This document shows, in pieces, positions 21,101-63,673 of a stretch of DNA of 64,000 nucleotides; position 1 is the first letter of the stretch, and every line of letters starts with the position of its first letter. The translations under genes and the position numbers were made by a program. Under the pieces are notes generated by a model that saw only the letters and a list, made by a program, of their open reading frames with translations, was not told the origin of the DNA and searched no databases. Where the stretch lies: positions 1 to 64,000 of the forward strand of contig RSEE01000145.1 of assembly GCA_003971905.1 (NCBI GenBank), given 5' to 3'. Origin of the DNA: Moniliella sp. 'wahieum' (Eukaryota).

Positions 21101-21317
21101 TGTAAGACCGGAGGAACCCAAGGGATTGGGTGAAGAACCTCTGGAAATGTAGAGCAATGCAATCGCGATGGTGGTGGTTCAGGTCTAAGCCTTGTGCCAC
21201 ACCTAGAGACAGGGGTTCAGACAAGCCTGAGTATACACGTGGAGGCTTCGGAGGACAAATCAGGGGTGAAGGGTGATGAGGCGCCTTGGCCTAAGTACGG
21301 GACCACGGGTCCCAACA
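21101..21317 (-). repeat. 3' LTR of the copia element
   Basis: Direct repeat of 26776-26992, preceded in element sense by a G-run (PPT). Confidence 0.97.
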
Positions 21318-21355
21318 CCCCCCGGGCCAAGGGAACGAAAGAAGCCCGTTGGCCA

Positions 21356-24300
21356 TCAACAAAAGAAAAGTAGAAAGGGGATCAGCGCGAGAAAGAGAAG
21401 CCAAATCGAAATTGTTACGCGCAGAAATGATCTTGGGAAGAGAAAGAGGTTTGGTGAACCAGTCAGGGAGATGGTGTGCACCTGGAGTGTAGTGGACTTT
21501 AATTCGCCTCGGTGGATGCGTTCCCGCACCTCGTGGTACGAGACGTCAATCTCCCGTATTTTGCCTAGGCTTCCGAGCTTTTCGGCCAACGCTTTGGCAG
21601 CGGTGTTGTCAACAAAGAGCTCAATCGGGTGATTAGCCTTGCAGACACCAAGTTCAAACAGTATGTTGCGAATGAATAGAGCATCTCGAAGGCCATCTCC
21701 CATGGCTAGGTATTCAGATGCTGCTGTGTTGCTCACACCTTGATTTTGGGACTTGGAGCCCCAGGATACAGGCACACCGAAAACAAAAACAACATGGCCC
21801 GAAACGGAGTGAGAGTTGCTCTTGTCTGATGCAAAGGAGGCATCGGTGTGCAGCTCGAGTAGAGGGCGAGATCGGTTGGGTGTGAGGCACAAAGAGTAGT
21901 CAGACGTACCGGCGAAGAAACGTAACGTAGGTCCTCCGCTGCGCGTCGGTGGGCGGCGGACGGGTCGTCCATAAACCGCGCTAAAAAGGTAGCCGCAAAG
22001 AGGGCATCAGGCCGGGACATACGAGCCGCCCACAAGCTGGATCCGACAATAGAACGGTAGGCACGGTGCTCGTCTCGAGTGGCACGCTTTTCGTGTTCGG
22101 GTCGCTTGGGAGGCGGAAGTTGGTGGCCGATTGGAAGGTAGCGGGGCCGGTGAGGTGATATGTCATGCGCGGCAAGCGTCTCAGCGATGAATTTGGGTTG
22201 GCTGATGTACAGTCGTCCATCGATACGGTCGTATTGGCAGCCGAGATGGAAACGTAGGGGGCCGTTGGACTTAATTTGGATGCTGCGCCTTAATTCCACT
22301 AAGAATTCATCATACGCTTCTTGGGACCGACACGCGACCAAAAAGTCGTCAGTGTGGACGGCGATTAGGATCAGGCCAAGAGGTTCGGTGCGACGTATGA
22401 ACAGGCAAGGCTCTGATTTTAGGCTAGTGAAGTGGAGTCGGTCGCAAAGGAAAGTGCGGAGCCAATCTCCAAAGTTGGCCCCGCTCTGGTGCAGGCCATA
22501 GAGACTTTTCTTGAGTCTCCAGCAATGACCGGGCGCTTCTGGTAAGAAGGGGGGTGGTCGAACATAGACGAGCTCGTTGATATCGGCATAGAGGTAGGCA
22601 GCTTCCACATCGGCAGAAAATAAGTGGAGGCCATCAGCTTCGGCCAACGCAATTAGCGTGTTGACGGCAGCAGTACGAACGGCAGGAGCAAAAGATTTCG
22701 CCCATGTGCCAGGAACTTGCCGGTGCCCTCCCACAACGTAGCGGGCACGGTACTTGAGGAAGTTAGCATCCGCATCCGTCTTAGTACCTATGACCCACAT
22801 GCCGGGAAGGGGTTTGATCCCTGGGGGGATGGGTACAACTTCCTTCACGTCACGCTCGTCAAAACGCCGAAGCTCGAGGCGCATTGCCTCGAGTACGCCA
22901 TCAAAGGCAGGGTGACCCACCAACTTCTTGATGTTCTTGGGGGCCACCGGGACCCCATCGGTGGTCAGTATGACCTCGGTGTCACTTGCCGCGGATTCGA
23001 TTGCGAGTGCGATGGGGGGCGAGCTTGGCTCCGAAGCAGGTAGCATGGATGTGTCCGGCGCTGGTCCGAAAATACTCACCAAAGCCTGCATTCCTAGGGC
23101 GGAGAGGGCGGCCGGGTTGCCAAAGATGCTAGGGGCCTTGTTGACGAGCAGGGAAAAGGTGCCATCGCGCAAATTGTCGTTGGCTGGAATGGACAGGTCG
23201 AGGGGTGGAGCGTTGATACGCGCTTGGCGAACGGGATTGCGACGCACGAGTGCGGGGACGGCTGTATCGGTCAGGGGCACGGTCACGGGGGCGAGCGTGT
23301 CGGTGGGGGAGAGAGGGGAGGGGGATAGGGCGGGAGAGGAAGGGGAAGTGGAAGAGGGAGGGGAAAACAGGACTTGGTGGCCAGTGTCAACGGCATCTTC
23401 TGTGATAGTTTCATTTTCTTCGGCTTGCTTTGCCTGGCGTGTGTGCCATGCCTGCGGGGTCAGATGCAACAGGTTGGGGGGATACATGTGGGGGGTTGGA
23501 GTTGGTGGGAGTGGGGCCAGGCTCTGAATTCTCATTTTCGTTGGCTTGAGCCGGGCGATGTGCCTCTGTTTTTCGTTCTTTTAATTTTCTTTTTCCATGG
23601 GGGGCATTGTCTTTCTTACCATTAGTATCGCGGGTCAGTTCATCTATCGCAAAACGCACACGCCGGGGTGGGGAGCTGTCTGACTTCCCACCAGCACCCA
23701 TTTCTCCGCCCCCCCGCACCTCTCCGCCACCAGCAGGGACAAGGGGGTCCAGATGAAAGTGCGTGGGATATTCGGTGGTGTACGGGACATGTGTCCAGGT
23801 GGACGGCTTTTTCCAACGGAATCCAACTTGGCCGTCGTCCTGGTGGATGGCAAAGAGCCACCCCTTCGAACCGCGGCCGTGCCCGTAACCCACCAACATT
23901 GCTGGGACGGCCCGCGGACCAAGTTTGCCGCCCTCGCGTTGGTTGGGCAATAGGTGCAGGTAGGCAAGAGTGCCAAAACCGCGCATGCGAAGGGAGGGTT
24001 TAAAGCCATGGTACCGGACAAATCGGCTGTCCCCACCCAGTGCTTTCGGCGGCGACTGGTTGTGTGCATATGTGGCCGCCAACAAGCTGTGTTCCCACCA
24101 CTCGTCGGGAGTCAATCTGTTGGCGATTACCATGAGTCGAGCGCGATCCGTAATCGATCTTATGGCGCGTTCGGCGACCCCATTGGACGCACTTTCGCCA
24201 GGATTGGTGCGCTCGCTCACTACTCCCAGCTCGCAGTAAAACTCGTCCATTGCGGTGGTGAGTTCAGGCGCATTGTCAGAGCGGACCGTCTGAAGGGGGC

Positions 24301-25154
24301 GGTCGGGATGTTGGCGATGCTCGCGCCGGATGAAGGCTTGAAGTTCGGCTGTGGCATCACCCTTGGACACCAGGGGTAGCGTCCAGGTATACCGCGTAAA
24401 GTCGTCGACAATGATAAGGGGCGCGTAAGTATGACCCCCGCCGCCTTGGCGGGATATGTCAAGGACGTCGAGGTGGAGGAGAGAGAAAGGGGAGAGAGAG
24501 GGCGAATGGTTCGGATTGGGCGTCCAGTCGTGGCGTGAGGTGGGGCAGTGGCTGCTTAATGCGCATGGTGCACAGTGCCACGAGGACCGGACTAAAGCGA
24601 TGTCGCCACTGTTGACCCGTTCGAATGCTGGGTCATCCGACGTGAGGGATGAAAGTTGATCTAGAGGTGCATGATTCCATCGGATGTGGGCGTTTTTCAC
24701 CTTGACCAGGGTTGCATCAAGGTTGAGTAGCGAAGTGGCGCTGTTGGCTGTGGCTGTCGTATTGGGCGCCAGAGTAAGGGAATAGCTTGAGTCGGCGGCG
24801 AGACGAAAAGGTTCGCCGTGTCGTCCGAGATAGAGACCATGGCCACCTGGAGGGATCCAGCTGCCAATGCCTGCGACAGATAGATGGTAAGCGCTGAGCA
24901 GGTTGGTCGGGAAGGTGGGGCAGTACAAGCTGCCGGGTAGGTGGATGCGGATAGGGGCTCCGTTCTGGGTTTGAATGTACATAGAGATGGGTGCCAATGC
25001 CTTCAGTGTATGCGATCTGTCCGTTTGCCACTGCTATGGGCTCGCGGTGTGGACGAAGATTGATAAACGCACTTCGTTCATTGAATACGGATGGTCTCGC
25101 ACCTGAATCGTGTTGCGCAGGGAGGTTGGCTGGCTTAGGGCCTCCCGCGCTGTC
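21356..25154 (-). CDS. copia pol (protease, integrase, RT, RNase H), split by frameshifts
   Basis: PR: HDSGA..FINL..IAVANG..GIGT. IN: HIRWNH..CAPC, LHLDV, VDDFTRY, RSDNAPE, NGVAER. RT: RARYVVGG, DVEAAYL, LKKSLYGLHQSG, VHTDD. RH: TDASF, SEYLA, VDNTAA. The exact 3' end is uncertain. Confidence 0.93.
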
Positions 25155-26705
25155 CTAGTAGGGGTGAGGAGGGATTGTGGACACGACAGACTCCGTTTCA
25201 GTCGATGTGGCTGACTCGGGTGGTGTAGTGGCTGCCATAGGGGTTACTGCATGGGCAGATGAGGTGGTCTGGGCTGTCGTAGCCGGCCGGCTAAAGTGGC
25301 CGCCACGTTGGCCACCACGGTGACTTCCTCTGTACCCGCTGCCACCTCGGCCTCGTCCGCGGCCTGTCACCGTACTGCTTGTTTGGCTGTGCGACGTGGC
25401 TTCCGAAGGGGCCGTACTGGAGGGAGCTGGGCTTGAACTGGAGGTACTGCCGTAGTTGGAGCCTTTGAGTTCGCTCACTGCTCGGCGCAATTCGGCGTAG
25501 CTGCTGTTACGATGGAGGTGCAACCACCCCTGATCAGTAACGCCTTTCCGTAGCATCTGTGCTAGACCAATCTCGTCCAGCTTGGACTTGGACGTCATCT
25601 CGTACTGGGTTACCGCCACAGTGAACTCATTCAGGTATTGGCGGCCCGACTTGGTGCCCATTTTGAGAGTGAGAACCTTTATGAGGATATCACAGATCTC
25701 AGTGTCTGAAACGGTGCCGTACAAATCACGCAGAGCATGATAGTATGCAGACCCTAGAGCCGGCGTGCCATCGCCGGTGATCTGCTGGACGACGTCGGAG
25801 TCTATCCACGGGAGTAGAATGTTGGCCAAGTGAGCGTCCAGTTCTGCGTTATACCCGTCCAGGGCCTTGCCCTGTTCCAGATGCTCACGCGCTCCAGGGA
25901 TAATCTGGATACGAGGGAGGAAGATCCGGGTCCATAACCAAAACGAGCTGTTGTTGTGGAAACGCTCGTGGTACGGCACGTTGGTGCGAGTGGCACTACG
26001 GAGGAGCTTGTCGGGAGTCAAAGCCCACGGGTTGTCGTCGACGGCCGGAGTTGACGATAAGGCACCTTCGTTCTTGCTAGCATTGGGTGGATTCTCACAT
26101 GATAACATGACAATGGCTTCTGTGGTCGTCTTTTCGCTGTACCCAAGCTTGATACCAGTGTCCTGTAGCTGTTTGAGGGTGATGTGTTCGGGAAACAATT
26201 TGAACATGTTGCGAATGCGGTCGGCGAGGGTGGCGACGTCGTTCGCGGTGTTGTCGGGGCCCACGGGGGTGGGTTGAGGTGTAGGGGTAGATTCACGCGA
26301 TGGTGTCAGCGGCGGGGAGGCGTGGTCAACTCCGACGGGAGTGGTGCTCTCTTCTGCGGCGGCAGTTGGTGAAGTAGGGGTTGAGGAGTTGAACCAAGAC
26401 TCCTGAGTCTGAGAGCTCATGATGCTTGCCATTAGCTTACGCAGTTCGAGCAAGCGCTTGTGGATAGGGCCGGCAGCGGAGGCATCGTTGCGGTAGCGGA
26501 GTAGTAACTTGGTGAGGGAGTCCATGTGGTTGTTGCACACGGTGAGCTGGGCCATGTATTCGGAATTCGGATCTCTCTGGGTGGGAGTGGCATTGCGAAG
26601 TAGAATGTTGTAGACTTGCTGGTAATCCGACAGCAGTTGGGCGGCAGCGTCGGCGTTGGGCGCTGCTGCGCCCACAGGGGGGAGGTAGGTGTTGACCCAA
26701 GACAT
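25155..26705 (-). CDS. copia gag-like ORF (516 aa) ending at TAG
   Basis: Intact ORF starting 70 bp after the 5' LTR. Has a capsid-like segment (ALRDLYG..LTLKM..QYLNEF) and an RGG-rich C-terminal region; no CCHC knuckle seen. Confidence 0.85.
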   Translation of the reverse strand: MSWVNTYLPPVGAAAPNADAAAQLLSDYQQVYNILLRNATPTQRDPNSEYMAQLTVCNNHMDSLTKLLLRYRNDASAAGPIHKRLLELRKLMASIMSSQTQESWFNSSTPTSPTAAAEESTTPVGVDHASPPLTPSRESTPTPQPTPVGPDNTANDVATLADRIRNMFKLFPEHITLKQLQDTGIKLGYSEKTTTEAIVMLSCENPPNASKNEGALSSTPAVDDNPWALTPDKLLRSATRTNVPYHERFHNNSSFWLWTRIFLPRIQIIPGAREHLEQGKALDGYNAELDAHLANILLPWIDSDVVQQITGDGTPALGSAYYHALRDLYGTVSDTEICDILIKVLTLKMGTKSGRQYLNEFTVAVTQYEMTSKSKLDEIGLAQMLRKGVTDQGWLHLHRNSSYAELRRAVSELKGSNYGSTSSSSPAPSSTAPSEATSHSQTSSTVTGRGRGRGGSGYRGSHRGGQRGGHFSRPATTAQTTSSAHAVTPMAATTPPESATSTETESVVSTIPPHPY

Positions 26706-26775
26706 GGGTGGGTGGAAGATTGGAAGAGTGTAAGAGTGGAAGGCTCAGGGCTGAGCGTCAAGAGGATTGTAACTC

Positions 26776-26992
26776 TGTAAGACCGGAGGAACCCAAGGGA
26801 TTGGGTGAAGAACCTCTGGAAATGTAGAGCAATGCAATCGCGATGGTGGTGGTTCAGGTCTAAGCCTTGTGCCACACCTAGAGACAGGGGTTCAGACAAG
26901 CCTGAGTATACACGTGGAGGCTTCGGAGGACAAATCAGGGGTGAAGGGTGATGAGGCGCCTTGGCCTAAGTACGGGACCACGGGTCCCAACA
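26776..26992 (-). repeat. 5' LTR of the copia element
   Basis: Direct repeat of 21101-21317, followed in element sense by GAGTTACAATC at the PBS position. Confidence 0.97.
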
Positions 26993-50700: not shown

Positions 50701-52300
50701 GTTTCCTCCGCCGCCATCGGCGGACTGAGGGAGCTCGCTAACTCCTTTTCGGGTAACGGTGGCAGGCCCAAGGTTGAACCAGCCTCCATTGTACTTTGGG
50801 GGACGGCGGGGGTGGAATAAGGTCGATCGGATGATGGCAAGAAGGTGACACCGAGCTCAGATGCAGGGCTCGTCACAGAGTGAGGTGCACGAGGCCGATC
50901 TGCCGCTGCCACCATCTGTGGTCCACCAAGAGTCGACTCGGGACCAAGAACGGTGCGGGGTGCAGCAGGAGTCGATGGTATGCTTTCCTCTGCGCCCACA
51001 GGAGCGCTGCCTACTCTTGCCTCTTCTGGTTCGGGAAGTTGGGGTAGGCCCAAGGTTGAGCCAGCCTCCACCGTACTCTGTGGAACGGGGGGGTGCTGGG
51101 AGGATTGGATGAGGGTAAGAAGGAAGCGCCTCTGTCAGATGCAGGTCTCCTCACAGAGTAAGGGGGGCGCGCCGGTCCCTCTCCTGCCTCGGCTTGTGGC
51201 CTACGCTGAATCGACTCCTGAATGACAAGGGGGTGGGGTCTTTCCGGCACATCGAGGGAAGGCGCAGCCACACGAGAAGTTCCACGTTGTCCCAAAGTCC
51301 TGCGATAGGTAGGGTGGTTAGTAGAAGCAGGCAGGGGAGAGAGCACAACATACTCAGAAGCTAGGTGAGAGGAATGGGGCGAGTCCCGTTGCGGGGTAGC
51401 AGACCGATGGCGTGGCGCAACAGACCCGTGCACTGTCCGCTCCGAGCTCGAGGTTGTCTGCTGTTCAAACATGCTAATCAAGTTGCGCGTTGAAGAGGGC
51501 GCAGGGCTTGCCCGCACCGGGCTCGAGGGCGGCGGAAGTGACTTGGAATTGGAATTGGAATTGGAGTTGGAGTTGGAGTTGGAAGGAACTGATCGACTGG
51601 GAGAAGATGGTACTGTACGCTCACGTCTGGGACTGGGGCTCGTCAGGCGCTGAATCGTCTCAGCCACCGTACCGGCGCGAAGGGTGTTTGCGGTGGGCGA
51701 CCTACTCGCACGCGAATGGTGAGACTCATGGGGGGACGAGCGCTCGCGAACCTGTGCATCTCGTGTGAGAAGGAGGGGTGTGCCTTGCCTTACGGTCGAG
51801 CCGGACGGCGAGCGATGGGGCGTAGAGGAACCCCTAGGGCACGGGGACTCGCTCGGCACGTTCACCTTCCAAGAGCCAACAGGGCTGTGTCTTCCCGCCC
51901 GCGAGGGGGTGCGGGCATCAAAGAAAGCAGGAGTGGCAGGCGAGGGTTGGCGAGATACAGAAGGCGATGCTGCGGAGACATTCGGGAGGGCCGACAGCTC
52001 GGCAGAGAGGTCAGAGCCGATCGGGCGTGTTGATAGAGCTCGAGGGCTGCGGGCACGGATGGACTCGGGTGACCGCGTCGACGAGGAAGCCGATGAGGGA
52101 GCCGATGCGGGAGGCAAAACACGGTGGGCTGCAGTGGAAGAGGCGCTGGACGTGGGGCTGGGCGGGAGTGGGAGGCGTGTGGGCGACAGAGGCTGAGCCC
52201 AAGGGGATGCGGGGCGGGCGGGGGCGGGGAGGCCATGCGGGGATATGTGTGCTGGGGCGTGTGAAGCGGGAGAAGACGAGGAGGCCGCGGCGCAGGCCAT
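41726..52300 (-). CDS. Very large (~3400 aa if one gene) S/P/T-rich protein with a C-terminal coiled coil; function unknown
   Basis: Near-continuous chain of overlapping minus-strand ORFs. Introns at 42503-42561 and 42641-42697. C-terminal helical block KEVLRMFEEVGRIRESKRSVEHELSELFQMRAKYG followed by a Pro-rich tail. Could be more than one gene. Confidence 0.6.
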
Positions 52301-52601
52301 GCGCGGGCAACGAAGGAGGAAGCGCGCGCGCAGGAAGAGGTGGTGGGAGCAGCGCGGCGCTGAAGCGCAGGAGAAGGTGGGGCAGCACGAGAGGAGCGCC
52401 ACCGCCAACACAGACAACGACGGACGGCAAAAAGAAGGATTAGGCCTTAGGCGGATGCGGCCAGAGTGCGGCCCGTGCCCAGCACCTCCGCCAGCACGCT
52501 GAGCACGCTGCCCAGCGTGATCGGCAGGACGCAGTTGTGGGTGACGCCAACCTGTAACACGCGGCTCCCGCCTGCTCCCGCCTGCTCCAGCGGGCTGCTG
52601 G

Positions 52602-52841
52602 TGTTGGCCTAGGGAGCCGGACGGGCAGAAGGATGAGGAGAAGGTGATGGATTGGAGCCAGAGTTGGGTCTGGGTACAGAGGCATCTATATAGGAGGCTG
52701 GACTAGGCACAGGGACAGTGAGTCACACAGGAGAGAGTGCAGGGCACAGGGACAGTGACACGCAGGGACGTCAGCGTGGAAGCCGATGGAACCGAGGCGA
52801 ACCTGGTCTACCGACTGGGAGCCAGAGGATCACAGTCAACA
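52602..52841 (-). repeat. TRIM LTR (first copy)
   Basis: TGTTGG..GTCAACA termini, a central TATATA box, and a duplicated GGCACAGGGACAGTGA. Confidence 0.9.
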
Positions 52842-53560
52842 CCCCCGCTGGCCAGGGAACCCGGAGACATCGGTTGTGGGATGAGCTCCTGCCAGTGGAT
52901 GTAGAGAGGGGAGGACTTGAGTGGCAACCGGGACGAATGGCCTGGAGTTGTGCATGGCCACACGACTGGCCTACACCCCCGCTGTCCAGGATGACACCTG
53001 AACGAGCCGAGCGCTTGTGGTTGGTGTATTGTGCGACCGCCAGATGCTTGTAGAAGTCTTAGAAGTAAAAGTAGTAGGGGTTGCGCCCCGAAGCGATTTG
53101 GTGGGCAAAAGTAAAAAGCACCAGTTATAGGTGTAGTGAAAGAAAATTGGAAACTTGGAGTAAATGCGGTCCAAGGTCGTTTGGCATCAAAATTGGATGC
53201 GTTTGGTAGTTGTTTGGTTCCGCATGCCTGGTGCCAGTGGGGTCCATTGGGCATGGGAAATGAACGGGCGCTATGCGTCAACCGTCTTGATCTGTTTGGG
53301 TTCTCTTTGTTGTTGAAAAAGAGGAGTGGAAGAAGTTGGGTGACCACCCCCCCCCATCCTTTCCCCAGGTGCCCCGGATGAATTGGCAATCCGGGGCGTG
53401 TAGCCGTGGGTGGGGCACTTGATGAGCAGCCACCCCCGCTTTCTGCGATTCGCCTGCGCCGTTTTGTCGTTGGAGGAATTTCGTCTCGTTGACGATACCC
53501 GACACGTTTTGTTCCGTCGTGTGTTGTCCCTAAAAATCATTGCCCCATCTGTGGGGGACG

Positions 53561-53640
53561 AGTGTGCCGATTGTGGCGGTAGTATGCCGATTGTGGCGGT
53601 AGTATGCCGATTGTGGCGGTAAGGTGCCGATTGTGGCGGT
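53561..53640. repeat. 4 x 20-bp tandem repeat in the TRIM interior, present in every unit
   Basis: AGTATGCCGATTGTGGCGGT-type units. Confidence 0.95.
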
Positions 53641-56600
53641 GGTGTTGTTGGGCGGGAGGACGGGTGTGTCTTGTGGGCTTGGCGGCTTAGCTTGGGCTTG
53701 TAGGCTTGGGGGTGGGCTTGCTTGAAGAGCGCTCCCCTTCCGGGGGGATCAGATTGTAGCTCTGTTGGCCTAGGGAGCCGGACGGGCAGAAGGATGAGGA
53801 GAAGGTGATGGATTGGAGCCAGAGTTGGGTCTGGGTACAGAGGCATCTATATAGGAGGCTGGACTAGGCACAGGGACAGTGAGTCACACAGGAGAGAGTG
53901 CAGGGCACAGGGACAGTGACACGCAGGGACGTCAGCGTGGAAGCCGATGGAACCGAGGCGAACCTGGTCTACCGACTGGGAGCCAGAGGATCACAGTCAA
54001 CACCCCCGCTGGCCAGGGAACCCGGAGACATCGGTTGTGGGATGAGCTCCTGCCAGTGGATGTAGAGAGGGGAGGACTTGAGTGGCAACCGGGACGAATG
54101 GCCTGGAGTTGTGCATGGCCACACGACTGGCCTACACCCCCGCTGTCCAGGATGACACCTGAACGAGCCGAGCGCTTGTGGTTGGTGTATTGTGCGACCG
54201 CCAGATGCTTGTAGAAGTCTTAGAAGTAAAAGTAGTAGGGGTTGCGCCCCGAAGCGATTTGGTGGGCAAAAGTAAAAAGCACCAGTTATAGGTGTAGTGA
54301 AAGAAAATTGGAAACTTGGAGTAAATGCGGTCCAAGGTCGTTTGGCATCAAAATTGGATGCGTTTGGTAGTTGTTTGGTTCCGCATGCCTGGTGCCAGTG
54401 GGGTCCATTGGGCATGGGAAATGAACGGGCGCTATGCGTCAACCGTCTTGATCTGTTTGGGTTCTCTTTGTTGTTGAAAAAGAGGAGTGGAAGAAGTTGG
54501 GTGACCACCCCCCCCCATCCTTTCCCCAGGTGCCCCGGATGAATTGGCAATCCGGGGCGTGTAGCCGTGGGTGGGGCACTTGATGAGCAGCCACCCCCGC
54601 TTTCTGCGATTCGCCTGCGCCGTTTTGTCGTTGGAGGAATTTCGTCTCGTTGACGATACCCGACACGTTTTGTTCCGTCGTGTGTTGTCCCTAAAAATCA
54701 TTGCCCCATCTGTGGGGGACGAGTGTGCCGATTGTGGCGGTAGTATGCCGATTGTGGCGGTAGTATGCCGATTGTGGCGGTAAGGTGCCGATTGTGGCGG
54801 TGGTGTTGTTGGGCGGGAGGACGGGTGTGTCTTGTGGGCTTGGCGGCTTAGCTTGGGCTTGTAGGCTTGGGGGTGGGCTTGCTTGAAGAGCGCTCCCCTT
54901 CCGGGGGGATCAGATTGTAGCTCTGTTGGCCTAGGGAGCCGGACGGGCAGAAGGATGAGGAGAAGGTGATGGATTGGAGCCAGAGTTGGGTCTGGGTACA
55001 GAGGCATCTATATAGGAGGCTGGACTAGGCACAGGGACAGTGAGTCACACAGGAGAGAGTGCAGGGCACAGGGACAGTGACACGCAGGGACGTCAGCGTG
55101 GAAGCCGATGGAACCGAGGCGAACCTGGTCTACCGACTGGGAGCCAGAGGATCACAGTCAACACCCCCGCTGGCCAGGGAACCCGGAGACATCGGTTGTG
55201 GGATGAGCTCCTGCCAGTGGATGTAGAGAGGGGAGGACTTGAGTGGCAACCGGGACGAATGGCCTGGAGTTGTGCATGGCCACACGACTGGCCTACACCC
55301 CCGCTGTCCAGGATGACACCTGAACGAGCCGAGCGCTTGTGGTTGGTGTATTGTGCGACCGCCAGATGCTTGTAGAAGTCTTAGAAGTAAAAGTAGTAGG
55401 GGTTGCGCCCCGAAGCGATTTGGTGGGCAAAAGTAAAAAGCACCAGTTATAGGTGTAGTGAAAGAAAATTGGAAACTTGGAGTAAATGCGGTCCAAGGTC
55501 GTTTGGCATCAAAATTGGATGCGTTTGGTAGTTGTTTGGTTCCGCATGCCTGGTGCCAGTGGGGTCCATTGGGCATGGGAAATGAACGGGCGCTATGCGT
55601 CAACCGTCTTGATCTGTTTGGGTTCTCTTTGTTGTTGAAAAAGAGGAGTGGAAGAAGTTGGGTGACCACCCCCCCCCATCCTTTCCCCAGGTGCCCCGGA
55701 TGAATTGGCAATCCGGGGCGTGTAGCCGTGGGTGGGGCACTTGATGAGCAGCCACCCCCGCTTTCTGCGATTCGCCTGCGCCGTTTTGTCGTTGGAGGAA
55801 TTTCGTCTCGTTGACGATACCCGACACGTTTTGTTCCGTCGTGTGTTGTCCCTAAAAATCATTGCCCCATCTGTGGGGGACGAGTGTGCCGATTGTGGCG
55901 GTAGTATGCCGATTGTGGCGGTAGTATGCCGATTGTGGCGGTAAGGTGCCGATTGTGGCGGTGGTGTTGTTGGGCGGGAGGACGGGTGTGTCTTGTGGGC
56001 TTGGCGGCTTAGCTTGGGCTTGTAGGCTTGGGGGTGGGCTTGCTTGAAGAGCGCTCCCCTTCCGGGGGGATCAGATTGTAGCTCTGTTGGCCTAGGGAGC
56101 CGGACGGGCAGAAGGATGAGGAGAAGGTGATGGATTGGAGCCAGAGTTGGGTCTGGGTACAGAGGCATCTATATAGGAGGCTGGACTAGGCACAGGGACA
56201 GTGAGTCACACAGGAGAGAGTGCAGGGCACAGGGACAGTGACACGCAGGGACGTCAGCGTGGAAGCCGATGGAACCGAGGCGAACCTGGTCTACCGACTG
56301 GGAGCCAGAGGATCACTAACCGTCTTGATCTGTTTGGGTTCTCTTTGTTGTTGAAAAAGAGGAGTGGAAGAAGTTGGGTGACCACCCCCCCCCATCCTTT
56401 CCCCAGGTGCCCCGGATGAATTGGCAATCCGGGGCGTGTAGCCGTGGGTGGGGCACTTGATGAGCAGCCACCCCCGCTTTCTGCGATTCGCCTGCGCCGT
56501 TTTGTCGTTGGAGGAATTTCGTCTCGTTGACGATACCCGACACGTTTTGTTCCGTCGTGTGTTGTCCCTAAAAATCATTGCCCCATCTGTGGGGGACGAG

Positions 56601-59600
56601 TGTGCCGATTGTGGCGGTAGTATGCCGATTGTGGCGGTAGTATGCCGATTGTGGCGGTAAGGTGCCGATTGTGGCGGTGGTGTGTTGGGAGGACGGGTGT
56701 GTCTTGTGGGCTTGGCGGCTTAGCTTGGGCTTGTAGGCTTGGGGGTGGGCTTGCTTGAAGAGCGCTCCCCTTCCGGGGGGATCAGATTGTAACTCTGTTG
56801 GCCTAGGGAGCCGGACGGGCAGAAGGATGAGGAGAAGGTGATGGATTGGAGCCAGAGTTGGGTCTGGGTACAGAGGCATCTATATAGGAGGCTGGACTAG
56901 GCACAGGGACAGTGAGTCACACAGGAGAGAGTGCAGGGCACAGGGACAGTGACACGCAGGGACGTCAGCGTGGAAGCCGATGGAACCGAGGCGAACCTGG
57001 TCTACCGTGATCCTCTGGCTCCCAGTCGGTAGACCAGGTTCGCCTCGGTTCCATCGGCTTCCACGCTGACGTCCCTGCGTGTCACTGTCCCTGTGCCCTG
57101 CACTCTCTCCTGTGTGACTCACTGTCCCTGTGCCTAGTCCAGCCTCCTATATAGATGCCTCTGTACCCAGACCCAACTCTGGCTCCAATCCATCACCTTC
57201 TCCTCATCCTTCTGCCCGTCCGGCTCCCTAGGCCAACAGAGTTACAATCTGATCCCCCCGGAAGGGGAGCGCTCTTCAAGCAAGCCCACCCCCAAGCCTA
57301 CAAGCCCAAGCTAAGCCGCCAAGCCCACAAGACCACCCGTCCTCCCGCCCAACAACACCACCGCCACAATCGGCACCTTACCGCCACAATCGGCATACTA
57401 CCGCCACAATCGGCATACTACCGCCACAATCGGCACACTCGTCCCCCACAGATGGGGCAATGATTTTTAGGGACAACACACGACGGAACAAAACGTGTCG
57501 GGTATCGTCAACGAGACGAAATTCCTCCAACGACAAAACGGCGCAGGCGAATCGCAGAAAGCGGGGGTGGCTGCTCATCAAGTGCCCCACCCACGGCTAC
57601 ACGCCCCGGATTGCCAATTCATCCGGGGCACCTGGGGAAAGGATGGGGGGGGTGGTCACCCAACTTCTTCCACTTCTCTTTTTCAACAACAAAGAGAACC
57701 CAAACAGATCAAGACGGTTGACGCATAGCGCCCGTTCATTTCCCATGCCCAATGGACCCCACTGGCACCAGGCATGCGGAACCAAACAACTACCAAACGC
57801 ATCCAATTTTGATGCCAAACGACCTTGGACCGCATTTACTCCAAGTTTCCAATTTTCTTTCACTACACCTATAACTGGTGCTTTTTACTTTTGCCCACCA
57901 AATCGCTTCGGGGCGCAACCCCTACTACTTTTACTTCTAAGACTTCTACAAGCATCTGGCGGTCGCACAATACACCAACCACAAGCGCTCGGCTCGTTCA
58001 GGTGTCATCCTGGACAGCGGGGGTGTAGGCCAGTCGTGTGGCCATGCACAACTCCAGGCCATTCGTCCCGGTTGCCACTCAAGTCCTCCCCTCTCTACAT
58101 CCACTGGCAGGAGCTCATCCCACAACCGATGTCTCCGGGTTCCCTGGCCAGCGGGGGTGATGACTGTGATCCTATGGCTCCCAGTCGGTAGACCAGGTTC
58201 GCCTCGGTTCCATCGGCTTCCACGCTGACGTCCCTGCGTGTCACTGTCCCTGTGCCCTGCACTCTCTCCTGTGTGACTCACTGTCCCTGTGCCTAGTCCA
58301 GCCTCCTATATAGATGCCTCTGTACCCAGACCCAACTCTGGCTCCAATCCATCACCTTCTCCTCATCCTTCTGCCCGTCCGGCTCCCTAGGCCAACAGCT
58401 GGCTACCCCAACCAGGCATCCCAGTCCAGAGTACCTAGCTAGTGCCGGCCGCTGCGCTCAGATCGCAGATCTCACACCTCGCCAGACGTCGCCCCGCCAC
58501 TCTGTACTCAGTAACTAGTAATACACAGTGTACTCAGGTACTTTCTGCGCTCATCCATCACACACCCACGCCACCCACCGCACCACGCCGCACTCGGGCA
58601 TATCACTCACTACCCACTCACGCCGTACAGCCACGCAAGACTAACCGAACGAGCCGGCCTGCCAGTTCGCGTCGACTCTGGCTCAACATTCGCCCCTGCC
58701 CACACTCAGTACTGCGCCTGCGCCTTCCCCACGTCTCTCCCATACAACACCACACGTGTCATATCCCAGCCTCGCCTACGCTCCAAGTAGGTGAAGTAGG
58801 ACTGATGCATCCAGTTTCACATTTCCACGTCCAATCCCCTACCCTACTGACCCTGATCGACCTGATCGATAATCGATAATCCCGATCGTTACAGCTATTT
58901 TTGTTTGCCATGCATCCCACCGCTTCTTGCCATCCATCCCACGGTCCTCGCCAAAGATAGTAATGCGCCCCAGATGGCAAAAAACGTCATGATGATGAGG
59001 CCGCAGAAAACTCCTATTATCCTACTACTATTACGCAAACGTTTCCGGGGGGGGCAGTCCTTGATAAGCAAACAAAAGTAGGGAGGATTCTTTGCTGAGA
59101 ATGGAGGAGAGAATATCCAAGGGACCTATATAGCCGTAATACAGCGCGCACAAACAATTCATCACCGACCGCCTCCAATACACTAACTGCCTAAGTATAC
59201 CTCCCCCCCATTCAAAAACATATACATCCTCATCGGTCAATCGATCATCTCAGATCTCTCATCGATCATCGAGATCGCCCGGATCTGCAGAAAAAGACGC
59301 GCCGACATTCGAGAATAGTATTCGGTGCGTGCCCCTGCTGTATCTGTCATCGATCATGGATTATCGCTGCCATGCTCGCCTGTACATCTCTGTTGACATA
59401 CATGTTGGTACAGAACGGTCGCCACCTGCCTTTGCCATCGACGCTCGTTGACCGCACCTATCAACCTATCAATCGCACCACGCGAGGCCTGAGGGGAAAC
59501 AAAATACGCAATCAGTTATTCTAGTCTAAGTAGTTCGCGTTCGCTTGTTCTCAGGTCCGAAGATCTAGATCTGCGGCCGAGCCAAAAAAAATCGTGCGCT

Positions 59601-59736: not shown

Positions 59737-61872
59737 TCACGCCTCACGTACTAGGCGGCTGGGCCAACATCCGATCCAAAAAGGGGAGGTAAGGGCCCTG
59801 GATCTGGGACCCCTGCTGGATCTGAGCGCGAGCGGCCGGGGGCACGTCATCAGACGCGTTGGGGTAGTAAGGATACTCTTGGGAAGGCGAAGCGAGTTCT
59901 TCGCGGGCGCGCACTGTGGCCACACCCGGGTCAGGCCGGAAGGGGGCAAGGTGAGCGGTAGCAAAGGCTGTGCGGAGCAGGCTGGGATGGGCAAAGAGGT
60001 CCATCCAAGGTCCACGTAGTGCCAGAACAAGTTTATTCGCGTGTGGCATGGTCTGCTCAAACCGATAACTCACCTCGAGATTCCCACCGTACCATCCTGA
60101 GCCTCGGACCAGCGGAAGTTCCGAGCTGAGCGAAGCTTCTACCCCACTCGACGTGCGGGAACGCGCGAGCACAGTCGCATCTAATGGGTCCAGAGCGTAT
60201 CCGAGCGAAGCAGGTGAGAACGCGAGGCTTACCCCGTTCTCCGATGCTAGCGTGACAAACGGATGAGAAAACCACGAGGGAAGCGAAAGGAGTAGCAGAC
60301 GGGTGGTGAGGGCCGGTCTGGTTGCCTCCCAATGCATGACGCGAAGAGAAATGGGCAAAATGGGCAAACCAAACAGCTGGCAACAACGCTTCTTCTTGCA
60401 CGTTGCCCGCGGACGACGAGGCAATAACAATAGCGTTGGGCGCAAGGAGAGAACCCAAGTGCCGACCGACATCGGTTACTCGGCTTTCCGAATCCCCTGC
60501 CGCCCTTGCCCCACAAGCCAAGGCGGCACAACAACAACGGGCGGGATGGCCGTCCCCGACGCGTTCACTGCATCGATCACGGTGACGTAAAAGTCGGTTT
60601 CACCCAGAGGCGGGAAATGCATACTTGACGGTGTGACGGGAGCGGAGGGCGTAGGACGTCCTTGTTGCTGCCCAGGGTTGGGAGTTGCCTCAGTCAGACG
60701 GAAAGGGTCGCCAGGAGAGACGTGGAAGACGCGCGCAGATGCGCGCCATAGGTCGTCCGGAGTCATAGAAGGGTGGGAAGCGAGAACGGAGGCGATTCGA
60801 CGGAAAAAGTGTTCGGCAGCTTGGATTGGCGTCTTGTCCTGCTCGGGAGGACGCTTCTTGCGGATAAAGTTGACGGCCCAGCTGGCTCCGACACTGGGGG
60901 ACGTGGATGTGGATTCGGAAGAAGGTTGGTCTTGCGCCAGAAGGTCGTTGGCCGCTTGGGCCACCAGTTGCGGCTGGGGCGACGTACCGATCGCATCAAG
61001 CTCCGTAAGATACGCCAGTAGCACACTCTCGTATGCTTCGGACAACTTGAAGTTGCGACTGGCACGATCCGCACGAGAAGGGTGGCCATGAAGGCGCCGT
61101 CGCAACCGTTCGCGCGGGACATTGAACTGTTTAGCAATTGCACGCATGCTGATTGCCTTGAGACCGTTAGGACCAACGACGTCCGAAGAAGAAACACTGC
61201 CCTCTCTCTGAGAGGCCGAGGCAGCCGTCGTCGTCGCGCCACCATTGGAGGCACCCGCTTCGTCCAGGAGGAGAGCTTGGCGTCGGGCATCCTCCGCTTG
61301 AGCGGCCTCATACGCCTCCTTGTAGGCAACAACGGCCTGGCGCATACGCACCTCGACAGCGTCGGCGGCCTGACGTTGTTGCTCCGCGAGCTGGGAGGCA
61401 GATTTGGCATAAAGATTCATCGAGCGACGGATGGCCTCGCCGGAAAACCCACCGGGAAAGTGGCCGGAAGCTTGGGCGCCAGCCTGGGCCGCGGCATGAT
61501 CGTCGTCGCGGTCGAGGCGCGAGGGGCGGCCACGGAGGCGGTTGCGCAGGCGCTCGCGTGGCACGCCGAACTGCTTGGCCAAGGAACGCATGGACGGTTT
61601 GGTCCCGCTCTGGCAATACACCAGCACGGCCTGCGTCACGCGCGTCTCGAGTGCCAGCGCCTCGTTCCGGCGCGTCTCGGCAGCAACATGGGCTCGGGAC
61701 GCTTGCGCGTGCGGGTTGACTTGGGCGGCGGGCCGGGCGCAGGCCCAGGCACAGCCGCAGGCACGGGCCCAGGCACAGGCACAGGTGCCCCGGGCACATT
61801 GGCGGTGGGAGCAGCGCCAGGCACGGGCGGCTGCTGCCCCGACGGCGGCGGGAGCGGGTAGGACGGGTGCAT
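59737..61872 (-). CDS. pogo/Fot1/CENP-B-derived DNA-binding protein with a degenerate DDE domain
   Basis: Two psq-type HTHs (SMRSLAKQFGVPRERLRNRLRG; SMRAIAKQFNVPRERLRRRLHG) and a CENP-B-type HTH (KLSEAYESVL..VGASWAVNF). DDE-region remnants VTVIDAVNASG.AIPP and LDPLD. Start is approximate. Confidence 0.78.
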
Positions 61873-62110
61873 CGAGCCAGACGGGCGGCGCGGTGGTGGC
61901 AGCGCTGCGCCAACCCAAACCAAAACCCAGCCGGGCGACGACCGCTGCCACGCTGCGCGTCCACATGCCAGGTGGCACGTGGCAGGTGGCACCCACGCCC
62001 CCGCGGCGGAACCAGCCCATTCCGCCCCGCGCCCCACCGGCCTACCCGTTTAACAACCCCCCGGCAGGACAGCCACCTACCCCCCACGCCTGCACCCCGA
62101 GCCACTAGCC

Positions 62111-63673
62111 ATGGCCGAGCAGCGTGGGCGGCGAGCCGTGCGGGAACGGTGTGAGGCGCGTGCCCGCGCCGCAGAGTACCTCGCCTCTGTCGTTCGCTGC
62201 GAGTCGCTCTGGCTCGGCAGCGTCCGCTTCACCCCCGCTGACCTGGCCCGCATCTTTGACACCACCCGCGCTCCTGCCCGCGCACGGACAGTGCGCCACA
62301 TGACGCTCGGTCTTTCTTCTGGCGCGTGTGCTCCAACCGGCTGCTCCTGCGTCAGGCACTCCCGGAGCAGCGTCTGCTGCCGTTGCTGCCGCTTCAGCCG
62401 AGGCGGCTGCCCTCGCTGTTCCCGAAGCATGGGTACCTGCTACCACGCTGACCACCCGCCTTGCCGCCGTCGCAGCCCATGCTGCTGTCTTTGCCGACGC
62501 ACTGGACGTGGCGGAAGAGAACCATGCTCGCTCACAACGCCAAGGCGGTCTGGCTTTGCTCCCCCCACTTCCTAAACTTGGTTCCACCATCTCCGCCCTG
62601 CGGCACCGTACTGCTCCTGGTTCCCTCGCCCCGCCCGCCGCACCCTCAGCCTCGGTCACCGACTCCCTCCCCCCATCTCCACAGAATACAAGCAGGACGT
62701 GGCGACGCGCAGAGTCGGTGAAAGATTCGGCGTCTGTCGGGTCGGGTGGCGCAGACCACAATGAGATGCTGCCCCATCCGGTCTCGCCGCTCCTCCAGAC
62801 GAGCAATGCTTCTGCCTCAGCTGCTGCTTCGGCTGCTGCCACAGTAGTTGAGGGCGTCACGGGCGATGGGGCCATGACGGTAATCGCCTTGGGTGAGGGG
62901 GATCCTAAAGGGGTCGCTGTGCTGTGCCATCCTCATGTCGGGTTCGCATTGGACTTTGGCAGGGTATTTACCTCCCTGGTCACGGTCGTCGTTCAAGCCT
63001 ATGCGCAGGTGGCTCAACTTTCCGATCCATTCAACGAGTTGGCAGAGGAGGCAGACTGGGATGCAGTCCCAGCCGTCATGGCCGATGCGTTTGTTCAGCT
63101 TGAGAGCGGGCTGCACAGGACGTTTTCCTGGATCGGACAGGAACTCGACCTGCTCGCACGACAAATCGTCCGAGAACAAATGGGCCAGATGGAATTGCTC
63201 TTGTCATCTTTAACTTCCTCGGCACCTCCTGTGCCACCCGTACCTTCGCTACCTAACTCGCCCCCGTCCCCCACGCCCGCCTCACGACATGCTAGCACAC
63301 TCCCTACCCCAGGCACATCCCCCTCTCCCACCCTGTCCACCGCACCCTCCCCCTCCACCCCGGCCATCGCAACCTTGTCCACCCCCACCCCCACCCCCCC
63401 ACACCCGCCTCCTCCTCCCTCGTCTTACCGCCCTCGGAGCGATCCGTGCTCCCAGTGCCAACTGAGCCGTCACCGTTGGCCCCCACCACCCCTCTCTCTC
63501 ACAACGTCCGCGCTAGTTGGGGGGAAGCCACACCGCGCCCCGCACCAGTGGCCATGCCCACGCCCGCGCCCAGTCCCACGCCCAGCCCCACGCCCAATCC
63601 CAATCCCAATCCCAATCCCAATCCCAATCCCAATCCCAATCCCAATCCCACCAATCCCAATTCGGATGTATGA
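62111..63673 (+). CDS. Conserved-looking hypothetical fungal protein, frameshifted
   Basis: N-terminal EYLASVVRCESLWLGSVRFTPADL, central LCHPHVGFALDFGRVFTSLV and IGQELDLLARQIVREQM, and a Pro-rich/NP-repeat tail encoded by (CCCAAT)n. Confidence 0.55.

Follow-up and report, generated by a model that had tools for sequence, protein, structure and literature searches.

A composite of short LTR elements with U5 ends at both outer termini and one 5-bp duplication around the whole in Moniliella sp. 'wahieum'

The window, that is, the whole 64,000-nt stretch of contig RSEE01000145.1 analyzed here, contains a composite at positions 52602-58397 (5,796 bp without the flanking repeats), as delimited by a repeat search, alignments, and blastn. 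The composite contains a 240-bp LTR seven times and an internal region five times; both belong to a non-coding LTR element of 1.4 kb. Five LTRs and four internal regions are on the minus strand (left arm), and an inverted LTR-internal-LTR copy is on the plus strand (right arm); the two arms are fused at 57007/57008. The features are listed below, together with a Ty1/copia element of the same window.

21101..26992, minus strand: Ty1/copia element with integrase and reverse-transcriptase domains, candidate autonomous helper lineage
52597..52601, no strand: left GCTGG, 5-bp direct repeat (target-site duplication), adjoining the LTR-A terminus
52602..52841, minus strand: LTR-A, full length (240 bp), in its own sense TGTTGAC...GGCCAACA; U5 end adjoins the left flank
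52842..53762, minus strand: internal region 1, 921 bp, PBS-side block beside LTR-B and PPT-side tract beside LTR-A
53763..54002, minus strand: LTR-B, full length, common to units 1 and 2
54003..54923, minus strand: internal region 2, 921 bp, exactly the same as region 1 in the alignment
54924..55163, minus strand: LTR-C, full length, common to units 2 and 3
55164..56084, minus strand: internal region 3, 921 bp, exactly the same as regions 1 and 2 in the alignment
56085..56316, minus strand: LTR-D, 232 bp, first 8 nt of U3 removed by the unit-4 deletion
56317..56795, minus strand: internal region 4, 479 bp, internal positions 1-483 kept
56796..57007, minus strand: LTR-E, 212 bp, 28 nt missing from the start of U3, forms the left arm's inner end
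57007..57027, no strand: head-to-head junction, joined at 57007/57008 with one shared G; 19-nt asymmetric spacer (57008-57026) present in LTR-F only
57008..57238, plus strand: LTR-F, 231 bp, 9 nt missing from the start of U3, forms the right arm's inner end
57239..58157, plus strand: right-arm internal region, 919 bp, with two 1-nt deletions and one substitution of its own
58158..58397, plus strand: LTR-G, full length, private substitutions at positions 3 and 17; U5 end adjoins the right flank
58398..58402, no strand: right GCTGG, 5-bp direct repeat (target-site duplication), adjoining the LTR-G terminus

In the left arm, LTRs and internal regions alternate with a single LTR between units, forming a tandem array with a period of 1,161 bp (LTR, 240 bp; internal region, 921 bp) that comprises three identical units and one deleted unit. 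Units 1-3 were 100% identical over 3,483 bp. Internal region 1 holds four tandem repeats of 20 bp, as well as AGCGGGGGTG in two additional internal copies, and a TATA-like CTATATAG is located at LTR position 149 (LTR-A). Unit 4 is 711 bp long vs. 1,161 bp, the difference being a 445-bp deletion and a 5-nt deletion. The 3′ 437 nt of internal region 4, including the PPT, are deleted, and one unmatched base is present at the deletion junction; the private changes of this region are the 5-nt deletion and two substitutions. Both end points of the unit-4 deletion fall at GTTGAC sites bordering the removed stretch. The possibility that 56316/56317 joins separate molecules was rejected on the basis of these end points, and the junction was kept as an internal deletion. 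At PBS-side position 4, a T is found in internal region 4 and in the right-arm internal region and a C in internal regions 1-3, so that the left arm itself is split. The switch between T and C also lies at 56316/56317. LTR-D starts at LTR position 9 and LTR-F at position 9/10, a coincidence that we leave unexplained; the chance of two starts within 1 nt of each other is 0.0125 for a uniform distribution across 240 nt, 0.05 across 60 nt, and 0.1 across 30 nt.

At the center, LTR position 29 meets position 9/10, and 28 nt and 9 nt of the two U3 ends have been lost. Microhomology at the join amounts to 1 nt, filler is absent, and inspection of the sequence at 57007/57008 revealed no GCTGG. Given the losses of 28 and 9 nt, the single shared G, and the lack of filler, the center looks like an end-joined junction. 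A 139-nt stretch across it folds as a DNA hairpin (-88.3 kcal/mol, z = -25). A pure fold-back (self-primed) origin of the center was rejected, as the 3′ end could pair over 1 nt at most. A hairpin-capped cDNA on its own was also set aside; it would have one open end only and could not supply two U5 termini. The right arm, compared with the window by blastn, was 99.57% identical to the left units over approximately 1,392 aligned columns. In the alignment, the seven LTR copies, three of them shortened at the U3 end, were identical except for the two substitutions in LTR-G. The right arm has five private changes in all and its two LTRs differ at position 17; thus, the arms do not represent unaltered copies from a single event. 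The relative age of the two arms cannot be read from these private changes. Within the 64-kb window, blastn found no copies of the element beyond the composite.

This anatomy, read directly from the sequence, agrees with an earlier note on this DNA, in which four minus-sense units sharing LTRs were described as fused head-to-head to an inverted LTR-internal-LTR at approximately 57007 (repeat search, sequence, blastn, and alignments). The same note called the structure a 5.8-kb palindromic multimer. The inverted arms are there, but the palindrome is only partial: its center is asymmetric by 19 nt (inverted pair in the repeat search), and unit 4 is shortened.

Both outer termini are the ...GGCCAACA end, and GCTGG adjoins each of them (52597-52601 and 58398-58402), its 5 bp being within the 4-6 bp of target-site duplications. 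The claims that both outer ends are U5 and that one direct 5-bp repeat surrounds the whole structure were therefore borne out, the former after the orientation had been tested against the Ty1/copia element in the window. Two U5 ends with a duplication of canonical length are the combination expected of concerted insertion from two donors. Two fixed positions would match over 5 bp by chance with a probability of 0.0012-0.0014 (approximately 0.0013); GCTGG occurs 127 times in the window, about twice the uniform expectation of 62.5. When the 300-bp flanks were compared with the monomer, the similarity observed was reached by 28 of 200 and 78 of 200 shuffles. On these scores, the flanks are not element-derived as far as their sequence indicates; the idea that they are hidden element remnants was rejected, and the local likeness of the left flank to the PPT tract was taken as chance because similarity was at shuffle level. 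No target motif common to the copia site and the small-element site was found (anchored identity 13/35, P = 0.19). ARAGORN found no tRNA gene in the 64-kb window. At gathering thresholds, no Rfam family matched within the element, and the only match in the window was a 5S rRNA gene (2149-2267), approximately 50 kb from the composite.

The copia element has LTRs of 217 bp (TGTTGGG...CTTACA), which are 100% identical to each other, and a duplication of 5 bp (GCTAC when read in its sense), equal in length to that of the small element. Its RVT_2 match was strong (Pfam, E = 2.1e-37), and its rve match (E = 2.1e-06, 28.4 bits) was below the Pfam curated cut-off of 32.6. The reading frame changes unexpectedly between integrase and reverse transcriptase. 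The reverse transcriptase has an 89%-identical relative. All 11 nt directly after the 5′ LTR (GAGTTACAATC) are identical in copia and the small element (11/11), which fixes the U5 orientation of the latter; 17 of 23 aligned columns of the tract before the 3′ LTR are also identical and support this orientation. The LTR bodies had 147 of 256 identical columns in a global alignment, with no clear likeness, and LTR homology between the two elements was judged unconvincing beyond the tips. The small-element LTR has a 5-bp terminal inverted repeat (TGTTG...CAACA), and both its tips are CAACA, like the U3 tip of copia. The last 5 nt would thus offer nothing by which a U5/U5 pair could be told from a U3/U5 pair. 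The small element shares LTR tips, PBS side, PPT side, and duplication length with the copia lineage, as a non-autonomous partner does. Presumably, it is mobilized in trans by copia-lineage proteins.

The monomer measures 1,401 bp (240 + 921 + 240). Its LTRs are direct repeats that start with TG, end with CA, and carry the short terminal inverted repeats TGTTG/CAACA. A purine-rich tract, AGCGGGGG, adjoins the LTR start. The 11 nt after the LTR, the PBS position, are the same as in copia, and no tRNA gene was available within the window for a primer match (ARAGORN). Pfam gave no matches for the 312-aa frame of the right arm or for the unit-1 frames of 242, 191, and 119 aa. The long frame is not conserved among copies, being 312 aa in the right arm vs. 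242 and 191 aa in units 1-3, a split that results from 1-nt indels. The 312-aa frame (57253-58191) was therefore rejected as a gene, having no Pfam match and being split in units 1-3, and the element was treated as non-coding. A Cassandra-type element was ruled out, as Rfam and ARAGORN found no RNA gene in the element. For TRIMs, a strict size limit of <1 kb and an extended one of <1.5 kb have been given (PMC13570524); the 1,401-bp monomer is over the strict limit and within the extended one. The sequence features thus indicate that the unit is a non-coding LTR retrotransposon of TRIM type, by the extended size limit, with priming signals and LTR tips that appear to be borrowed from the Ty1/copia lineage present in the window. 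An exact-pattern scan of a bacterial and archaeal genome collection for related loci gave 0 matches, as expected. In protein searches, host genes of the window reached 41-45% identity at best; the closest named matches and the Atlas clusters were fungal, which lends weak support to a fungal host.

Our first-ranked reading, held tentatively and at somewhat less than even weight, is that a single aberrant integration at a single target site gave rise to the composite. Integrase would have paired the U5 ends of two cDNAs, or of two cDNAs already ligated head-to-head, and would have joined them to staggered cuts 5 bp apart, producing the GCTGG duplication. The free inner U3 ends would then have lost 28 and 9 nt, and host end-joining would have sealed them over 1 nt of microhomology. 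Later, unequal LTR-LTR exchange or cDNA recombination could have expanded the left copy into the shared-LTR tandem array, and a microhomology-associated deletion could have shortened unit 4. We infer that a single event paired two U5 ends, that end-joining took place, and that the steps followed in this order. Pairing of U5 ends by integrase with inner end-joining had been proposed in the earlier note: the anatomy (two U5 ends, one duplication, U3 ends at the center) and the junction fit it, but a single event is not proven, as the same end state would be left by two ordinary insertions that hit the same 5 bp, with a deletion at the center thereafter.

In vitro, purified HIV-1 integrase prefers pairs of U5 ends from separate donors and makes the correct 5-bp duplication (PMC8742673, in part). 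Formation of shared-LTR tandems during or after insertion is well documented in the relevant parts of three reports (PMC5932611; PMC11042837; PMC11899658). Among the open-access papers searched, no LTR element or retrovirus integrated in vivo via two U5 ends was found, and the inverted tandems of Drosophila were all that turned up on composites of the head-to-head, inverted-dimer, or U5-U5 kind. Against the U5/U5 route also counts that a single locus was examined, with no second copy in the window. That two cDNAs of a non-autonomous element each gave a U5 end, with the free U3 ends joined to each other, is possible, if still short of probable. Small helper-dependent RNAs may be especially prone to integration by the wrong ends: several of them could be packaged and reverse-transcribed per particle, and the CAACA at both LTR tips, mimicking the same helper tip, may be an added reason.

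Unlike each of its rivals, the U5/U5 route would need no positional coincidence in the genome. The main rival, which we consider rather unlikely, is a double insertion, in which a minus-sense copy would have inserted first and a plus-sense copy would have followed into the right-hand GCTGG. The intermediate would have been element(rc)-GCTGG-element(+) flanked by GCTGG, a near-perfect, unstable palindrome with a 5-bp spacer, and its center would later have lost 42 bp (28 nt, the 5-bp GCTGG, and 9 nt). This history predicts the observed outer flanks exactly and makes every integrase step ordinary. Long palindromes are prone to central deletions; the present center is still a very stable hairpin, and an ancestor with a better palindrome would have broken no less readily. 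An inverted pair of LTR elements in Drosophila provides a precedent (PMC5932611, in part). However, the second hit would have had to fall on the same 5 bp, on the right side, and in the right orientation, whereas the two target sites share no sequence preference (13/35, P = 0.19), the window has no tRNA gene, and its only 5S rRNA gene is approximately 50 kb away. The diagnostic copy of the duplication is missing from the junction and both LTR tips are gone, which leaves the double insertion unfalsified rather than supported. McGurk and Barbash recognized inverted tandems by a duplication between complete tips in the junction; here the tips are truncated and the duplication is absent, although a later deletion could have removed GCTGG.

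Capture of a cDNA at a break is a weaker rival than double insertion, and we regard it as improbable. A minus-sense array would have been broken just inside its U3-side terminal LTR, and an inverted linear cDNA end-joined there; on the flank side, the terminal CAACA of the cDNA would have annealed to the CAACA of the inverted LTR and so mimicked a U5 end at the old duplication. Such a microhomology join would leave exactly ...GGCCAACA|GCTGG. In yeast, end-joining places Ty1 cDNA and its replication intermediates into double-strand breaks, according to part of one report (PMC11372161). In addition, 56317-57007 mirrors 57027-57719 and carries the T variant of the right arm, which would fit a folded-back or multi-fragment insert, but the GTTGAC sites at the end points of the unit-4 deletion favor a simple internal deletion over a join of separate molecules. 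The break would have to fall in the last 8-28 bp of one LTR, a strong positional coincidence, and the U5 joint is clean, whereas 40 of 56 captured insertions of the 3′ LTR in wild-type yeast had extra cDNA-only nucleotides (PMC11372161, in part). An assembly artefact is less probable again: the inverted arm or the number of identical units could stem from a long read that was chimeric or folded back, or from a repeat resolved wrongly. The 100% identity of three units over 3,483 bp would agree with this, as would two right-arm differences in which a single base is deleted, once within a G run, as is typical of consensus errors, and the copia frame change between integrase and reverse transcriptase. 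However, a fold-back would mirror the flank too, whereas the inverted arm ends exactly at the LTR tip with unique sequence beyond and the matching 5-bp repeat next to it; the window contains no N, and the arms bear distinct private variants. Least probable of all, and very much so, are two unrelated opposite insertions at nearby sites, followed by an LTR-to-LTR deletion of the host DNA between them, with an accidental GCTGG match. The center is deletion-like, and GCTGG is about twice as frequent in the window as expected (127 vs. 62.5), but the exact 5-bp match has a probability of 0.0012-0.0014.

If pairing of like ends of two cDNAs occurs in vivo, then LTR elements gain an alternative mode of transposition like that of DNA transposons. 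One step would break and re-join the chromosome and make a kilobase-scale inverted repeat with outward-facing LTR promoters on both sides. At this locus, both terminal LTRs point outward, the left one toward a putative gene, an open frame on the minus strand that has its first ATG at a distance of 302 bp. Fragile sites and rearrangements would then have a new origin in such events, as might hairpin RNA on read-through, and the strict U3/U5 pairing assumed by annotation pipelines would not be absolute; composites of this kind are probably discarded as "complex" loci. If the double insertion is right instead, then the locus marks a single-nucleotide integration hot spot and palindrome trimming, which would be useful but ordinary.

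The small element resembles TRIMs with autonomous partners in being short and non-coding and in sharing PBS- and PPT-side signals with an autonomous element. The LTR tip TGTT is frequent among short families (PMC13570524). Unlike a strict TRIM (<1 kb), it is 1,401 bp long, and only the extended limit of <1.5 kb fits (PMC13570524).

For tandem LTR elements with one common LTR, part of one report documents cases in S. pombe and cites others, namely Ty1 and Ty5, from S. cerevisiae (PMC11042837). The suggestion in the earlier note that tandem arrays are mainly a plant feature is corrected by these S. pombe, Ty1, and Ty5 cases. Its remark that no description of the architecture in a fungus was known to its author has to be narrowed likewise: shared-LTR tandem arrays were already known in yeasts, and only the architecture of two U5 ends plus a duplication looks undescribed. 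Shared-LTR arrays include those of Tf1/Tf2 in S. pombe, plant tandem TRIMs and LTR elements, and most Drosophila LTR families. As in such arrays, neighboring units of the left arm have one LTR between them, and a 5-bp duplication surrounds the whole, as in rice (PMC11899658) and, in the relevant parts of two reports, as in the arrays of S. pombe (PMC11042837) and Drosophila (PMC5932611). Those arrays are direct throughout, with one U3 and one U5 tip, whereas the present composite has an inverted copy joined on and U5 at both tips.

Inverted tandems were described by McGurk and Barbash at high frequency for three Drosophila LTR families (PMC5932611, in part). In the same part of that report, a Rover pair in the Drosophila reference genome has a 6-nt motif in its junction, ascribed to a possible double insertion, and double insertion is also shown for P elements (PMC5932611). 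The composite is like the Rover pair and the head-to-head P-element dimers in that opposite copies of one family are at a single site (PMC5932611, in part). It is unlike them in its junction: they keep a target-site copy there, as far as that part of the report covers them, whereas GCTGG is absent here and both inner LTR tips are truncated.

Transposition by the wrong ends is known among DNA transposons, as reversed-ends and sister-chromatid transposition of Ac/Ds and as hybrid element insertion of P elements. These systems and the U5/U5 route have in common the synapsis of two ends that do not come from one normal copy; they differ in that Ac/Ds and P elements move by cut-and-paste with chromosomal ends, whereas the ends here would be on extrachromosomal cDNAs. 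The closest likeness in end structure is to bimolecular concerted integration in vitro, in which two U5 ends are inserted with the canonical 5-bp spacing (PMC8742673, in part). Unlike the test-tube reaction of HIV-1 integrase with short donors, as described in that part of the source, the event proposed here would be a natural chromosomal integration of Ty1/copia type, followed by host end-joining.

The 240-bp LTR of the small element occurred in seven copies in the window, five on the minus strand and two on the plus strand. The sense strand was defined as the strand on which this LTR reads TGTTGAC...GGCCAACA. From left to right, the copies are as follows:

52602-52841, minus strand, LTR-A
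53763-54002, minus strand, LTR-B
54924-55163, minus strand, LTR-C
56085-56316, minus strand, LTR-D
56796-57007, minus strand, LTR-E
57008-57238, plus strand, LTR-F
58158-58397, plus strand, LTR-G

Five internal regions lay between the LTRs: int1 to int3 (921 bp each, identical) and int4 (479 bp) in the left arm, and intR (919 bp) in the right arm. The composite measured 5,796 bp (5,806 bp including the flanking repeats), with a left arm of 4,406 bp, a right arm of 1,390 bp and an array period of 1,161 bp. Both outer termini were the ...GGCCAACA tip, and GCTGG directly adjoined each of them (52597-52601 and 58398-58402). The repeat search, the sequence itself, alignment of every copy and a blastn search of the whole window with the right arm bore out the architecture described in an earlier note, a palindromic multimer of a terminal-repeat retrotransposon in miniature (TRIM) with identical outer LTR ends. 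No other copies were found by blastn in the remaining 58 kb of the window with the right arm as query, and the bacterial and archaeal genomes scanned by exact pattern gave no match to the element. At the head-to-head center, LTR-E stopped at position 29 and LTR-F started at position 10, with one G assignable to either and a 19-nt asymmetric spacer; GCTGG was absent from this junction. A 139-nt stretch across the center had a DNA hairpin energy of -88.3 kcal/mol vs. -23.2 in shuffles (z = -25).

The identity of the unit was examined against the minus-strand Ty1/copia element (21101-26992), which showed Pfam matches to RVT_2, rve (under the curated cut-off) and SH3_retrovirus. Its 217-bp LTRs were 100% identical, with tips TGTTGGG...CTTACA, and its 5-bp duplication was GCTAC in its own sense. 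Its 5′ LTR is followed by the 11 nt GAGTTACAATC, and the same 11 nt follow the small element's ...GGCCAACA tip. The tracts before the 3′ LTR were identical in 17 of 23 aligned columns, and both finished in a G run abutting TGTTG. These two similarities fix the orientation of the small element; the outward-facing tip of the composite is U5, adjoining the primer-binding (PBS) side, as established independently of the earlier reading. The shared signals identify the small element as a nonautonomous relative with copia-type priming signals, and the LTR bodies matched at 147 of 256 columns, a level at which homology is not clear. By the tests run, the internal region is noncoding: its open frames had no Pfam matches, no Rfam families were found inside the element, and a frame that spans 312 aa in the right arm was split into 242 and 191 aa in units 1 to 3 through 1-nt indels. 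The 1,401-bp unit is over the strict TRIM limit (<1 kb) and inside the extended limit (<1.5 kb) quoted in PMC13570524; TRIM-class elements have been annotated in fungal genomes.

Each full unit carried three copies of AGCGGGGGTG, the motif at the boundary of the purine-rich tract (PPT): one at the PPT itself and the other two at internal sites. The window contained 14 matches (0.21 expected), 13 in the composite (range 52840-58159; for example, 57560-57569, 58016-58025 and 58150-58159) and one at 62230-62239. Each internal region also carried four 20-bp tandem repeats (53561-53640, equivalent spots in the other units, and 57357-57436 in the right arm).

The LTR sequences were identical except for two substitutions in LTR-G (positions 3 and 17). 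Position 4 of the PBS-side block was C in int1 to int3 and T, the copia state, in int4 and intR. Private changes comprised two 1-nt deletions and one substitution in intR, and a 5-nt deletion and two substitutions in int4. The region from internal position 484 through LTR position 8 (445 bp, PPT included) was missing from int4, with end points at flanking GTTGAC sites (LTR position 2, internal position 481) and one unmatched base at the junction; we read this loss as a probable microhomology-associated deletion. U3 truncation was nearly equal at different junctions, the first base present being position 9 in LTR-D and 9/10 in LTR-F (chance of coincidence 0.0125 to 0.1, by the range assumed). 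This could be chance or a hint that an aberrant cDNA terminus is preferred, for example one from misplaced plus-strand priming.

Two fixed 5-mers would match by chance in the window with P = 0.0012-0.0014, similarity of the flanks to the element was at shuffle level (28/200 and 78/200 shuffles reached the observed value), and the 5-bp duplication equaled that of the copia element in length. We therefore accepted the single insertion site with a GCTGG duplication proposed earlier, and consider a fortuitous GCTGG match extremely improbable. An assembly error is very improbable; a fold-back artifact would mirror the flank rather than halt at the LTR tip.

Other features of the window were as follows:

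2149-2267, 5S rRNA gene (107 bits)
26744-25158, 25033-23414 and 23580-21736, minus strand, copia coding region in three frames
51014-52300, minus strand, serine/proline-rich open frame of 429 aa, a possible gene
60476-62041, minus strand, open frame weakly matching HTH_psq and the Tc5-transposase DNA-binding domain

The copia element is young and lies ~300 bp downstream of an open frame (19760-20800) with a glycogen-debranching C-terminal domain. Its second frame change may be a mutation or consensus error, because in an 89% identical relative, P0012, a single 1,210-aa protein contains both integrase and reverse transcriptase. A tract of tandem repeats, ~1.9 kb in total and with a 40-bp and then a ~140-bp period, precedes the 5S rRNA gene (range 183-2267). 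Between the start of the 429-aa frame and the outward-facing LTR-A are 302 bp; the frame had no Pfam match and Atlas scores ≤0.80. For host genes, protein searches reached 41-45% identity at most, and the matches with a name were fungal. The frame at 60476-62041 (Tc5 match of 21.5 bits vs. a Pfam curated cut-off of 22.2) probably represents a pogo/Tc5-like DNA transposon that has decayed; neither a DDE domain nor terminal inverted repeats were found there.

Three histories each account for every base of the composite. Wrong-ends integration of two U5 ends was ranked first, tentatively. Integrase would synapse two cDNAs, or the two halves of a preligated head-to-head dimer, at their U5 ends and insert these ends with a 5-bp spacing; at the inner U3 ends, 28 and 9 nt would be trimmed before end-joining. 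The central junction is shaped as end-joining predicts, and the absence of any required positional coincidence was counted in favor. The small-element LTR has CAACA at both tips, as does the U3 tip of copia, and the end pairs thus cannot be told apart by their last 5 nt. HIV-1 integrase in vitro is reported to prefer U5/U5 pairs from separate donors while still making a 5-bp duplication (PMC8742673). Against this history, the evidence is one locus, and no in vivo precedent was found in the open-access literature.

It is rather unlikely that a second canonical insertion, in opposite orientation, entered the right-hand GCTGG of the first and that a 42-bp central deletion then took the middle GCTGG and both tips. 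Inverted LTR-element tandems are reported in Drosophila (McGurk and Barbash; PMC5932611), including a Rover pair whose junction contains a 6-nt motif, but the diagnostic duplication copy is missing from the junction here and the window showed no hot-spot sign. Less probable still is a canonical minus-sense array that broke in its last 8-28 bp and took up an inverted cDNA, joined on the flank side via the common terminal CAACA; Ty1 cDNA enters breaks through end-joining in yeast (PMC11372161), but the positional coincidence would be severe. We infer this ranking from priors rather than from a discriminating observation. Under all three histories, the identical units 1 to 3 stem from an ordinary expansion at a later stage, which could have proceeded by LTR-LTR exchange or cDNA recombination (PMC5932611, PMC11042837, PMC11899658).

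The earlier note gave plants as the main source of described tandem-array TRIMs, a view that needs widening: shared-LTR arrays also occur outside plants. In Schizosaccharomyces pombe, they are reported from the laboratory strain, and 17 wild isolates yielded 10 polymorphic tandems; the same source cites them for Ty1 and Ty5 (PMC11042837). In the open-access literature, we found no description of an LTR-element composite with the same LTR end at both outer tips and one canonical duplication. Ac/Ds and P elements offer a close parallel in their wrong-ends transposition. Also close is the in vitro two-donor integrase reaction (PMC8742673). The nearest structures are the inverted tandems of Drosophila (PMC5932611), which keep the duplication in their junction, whereas the composite does not.
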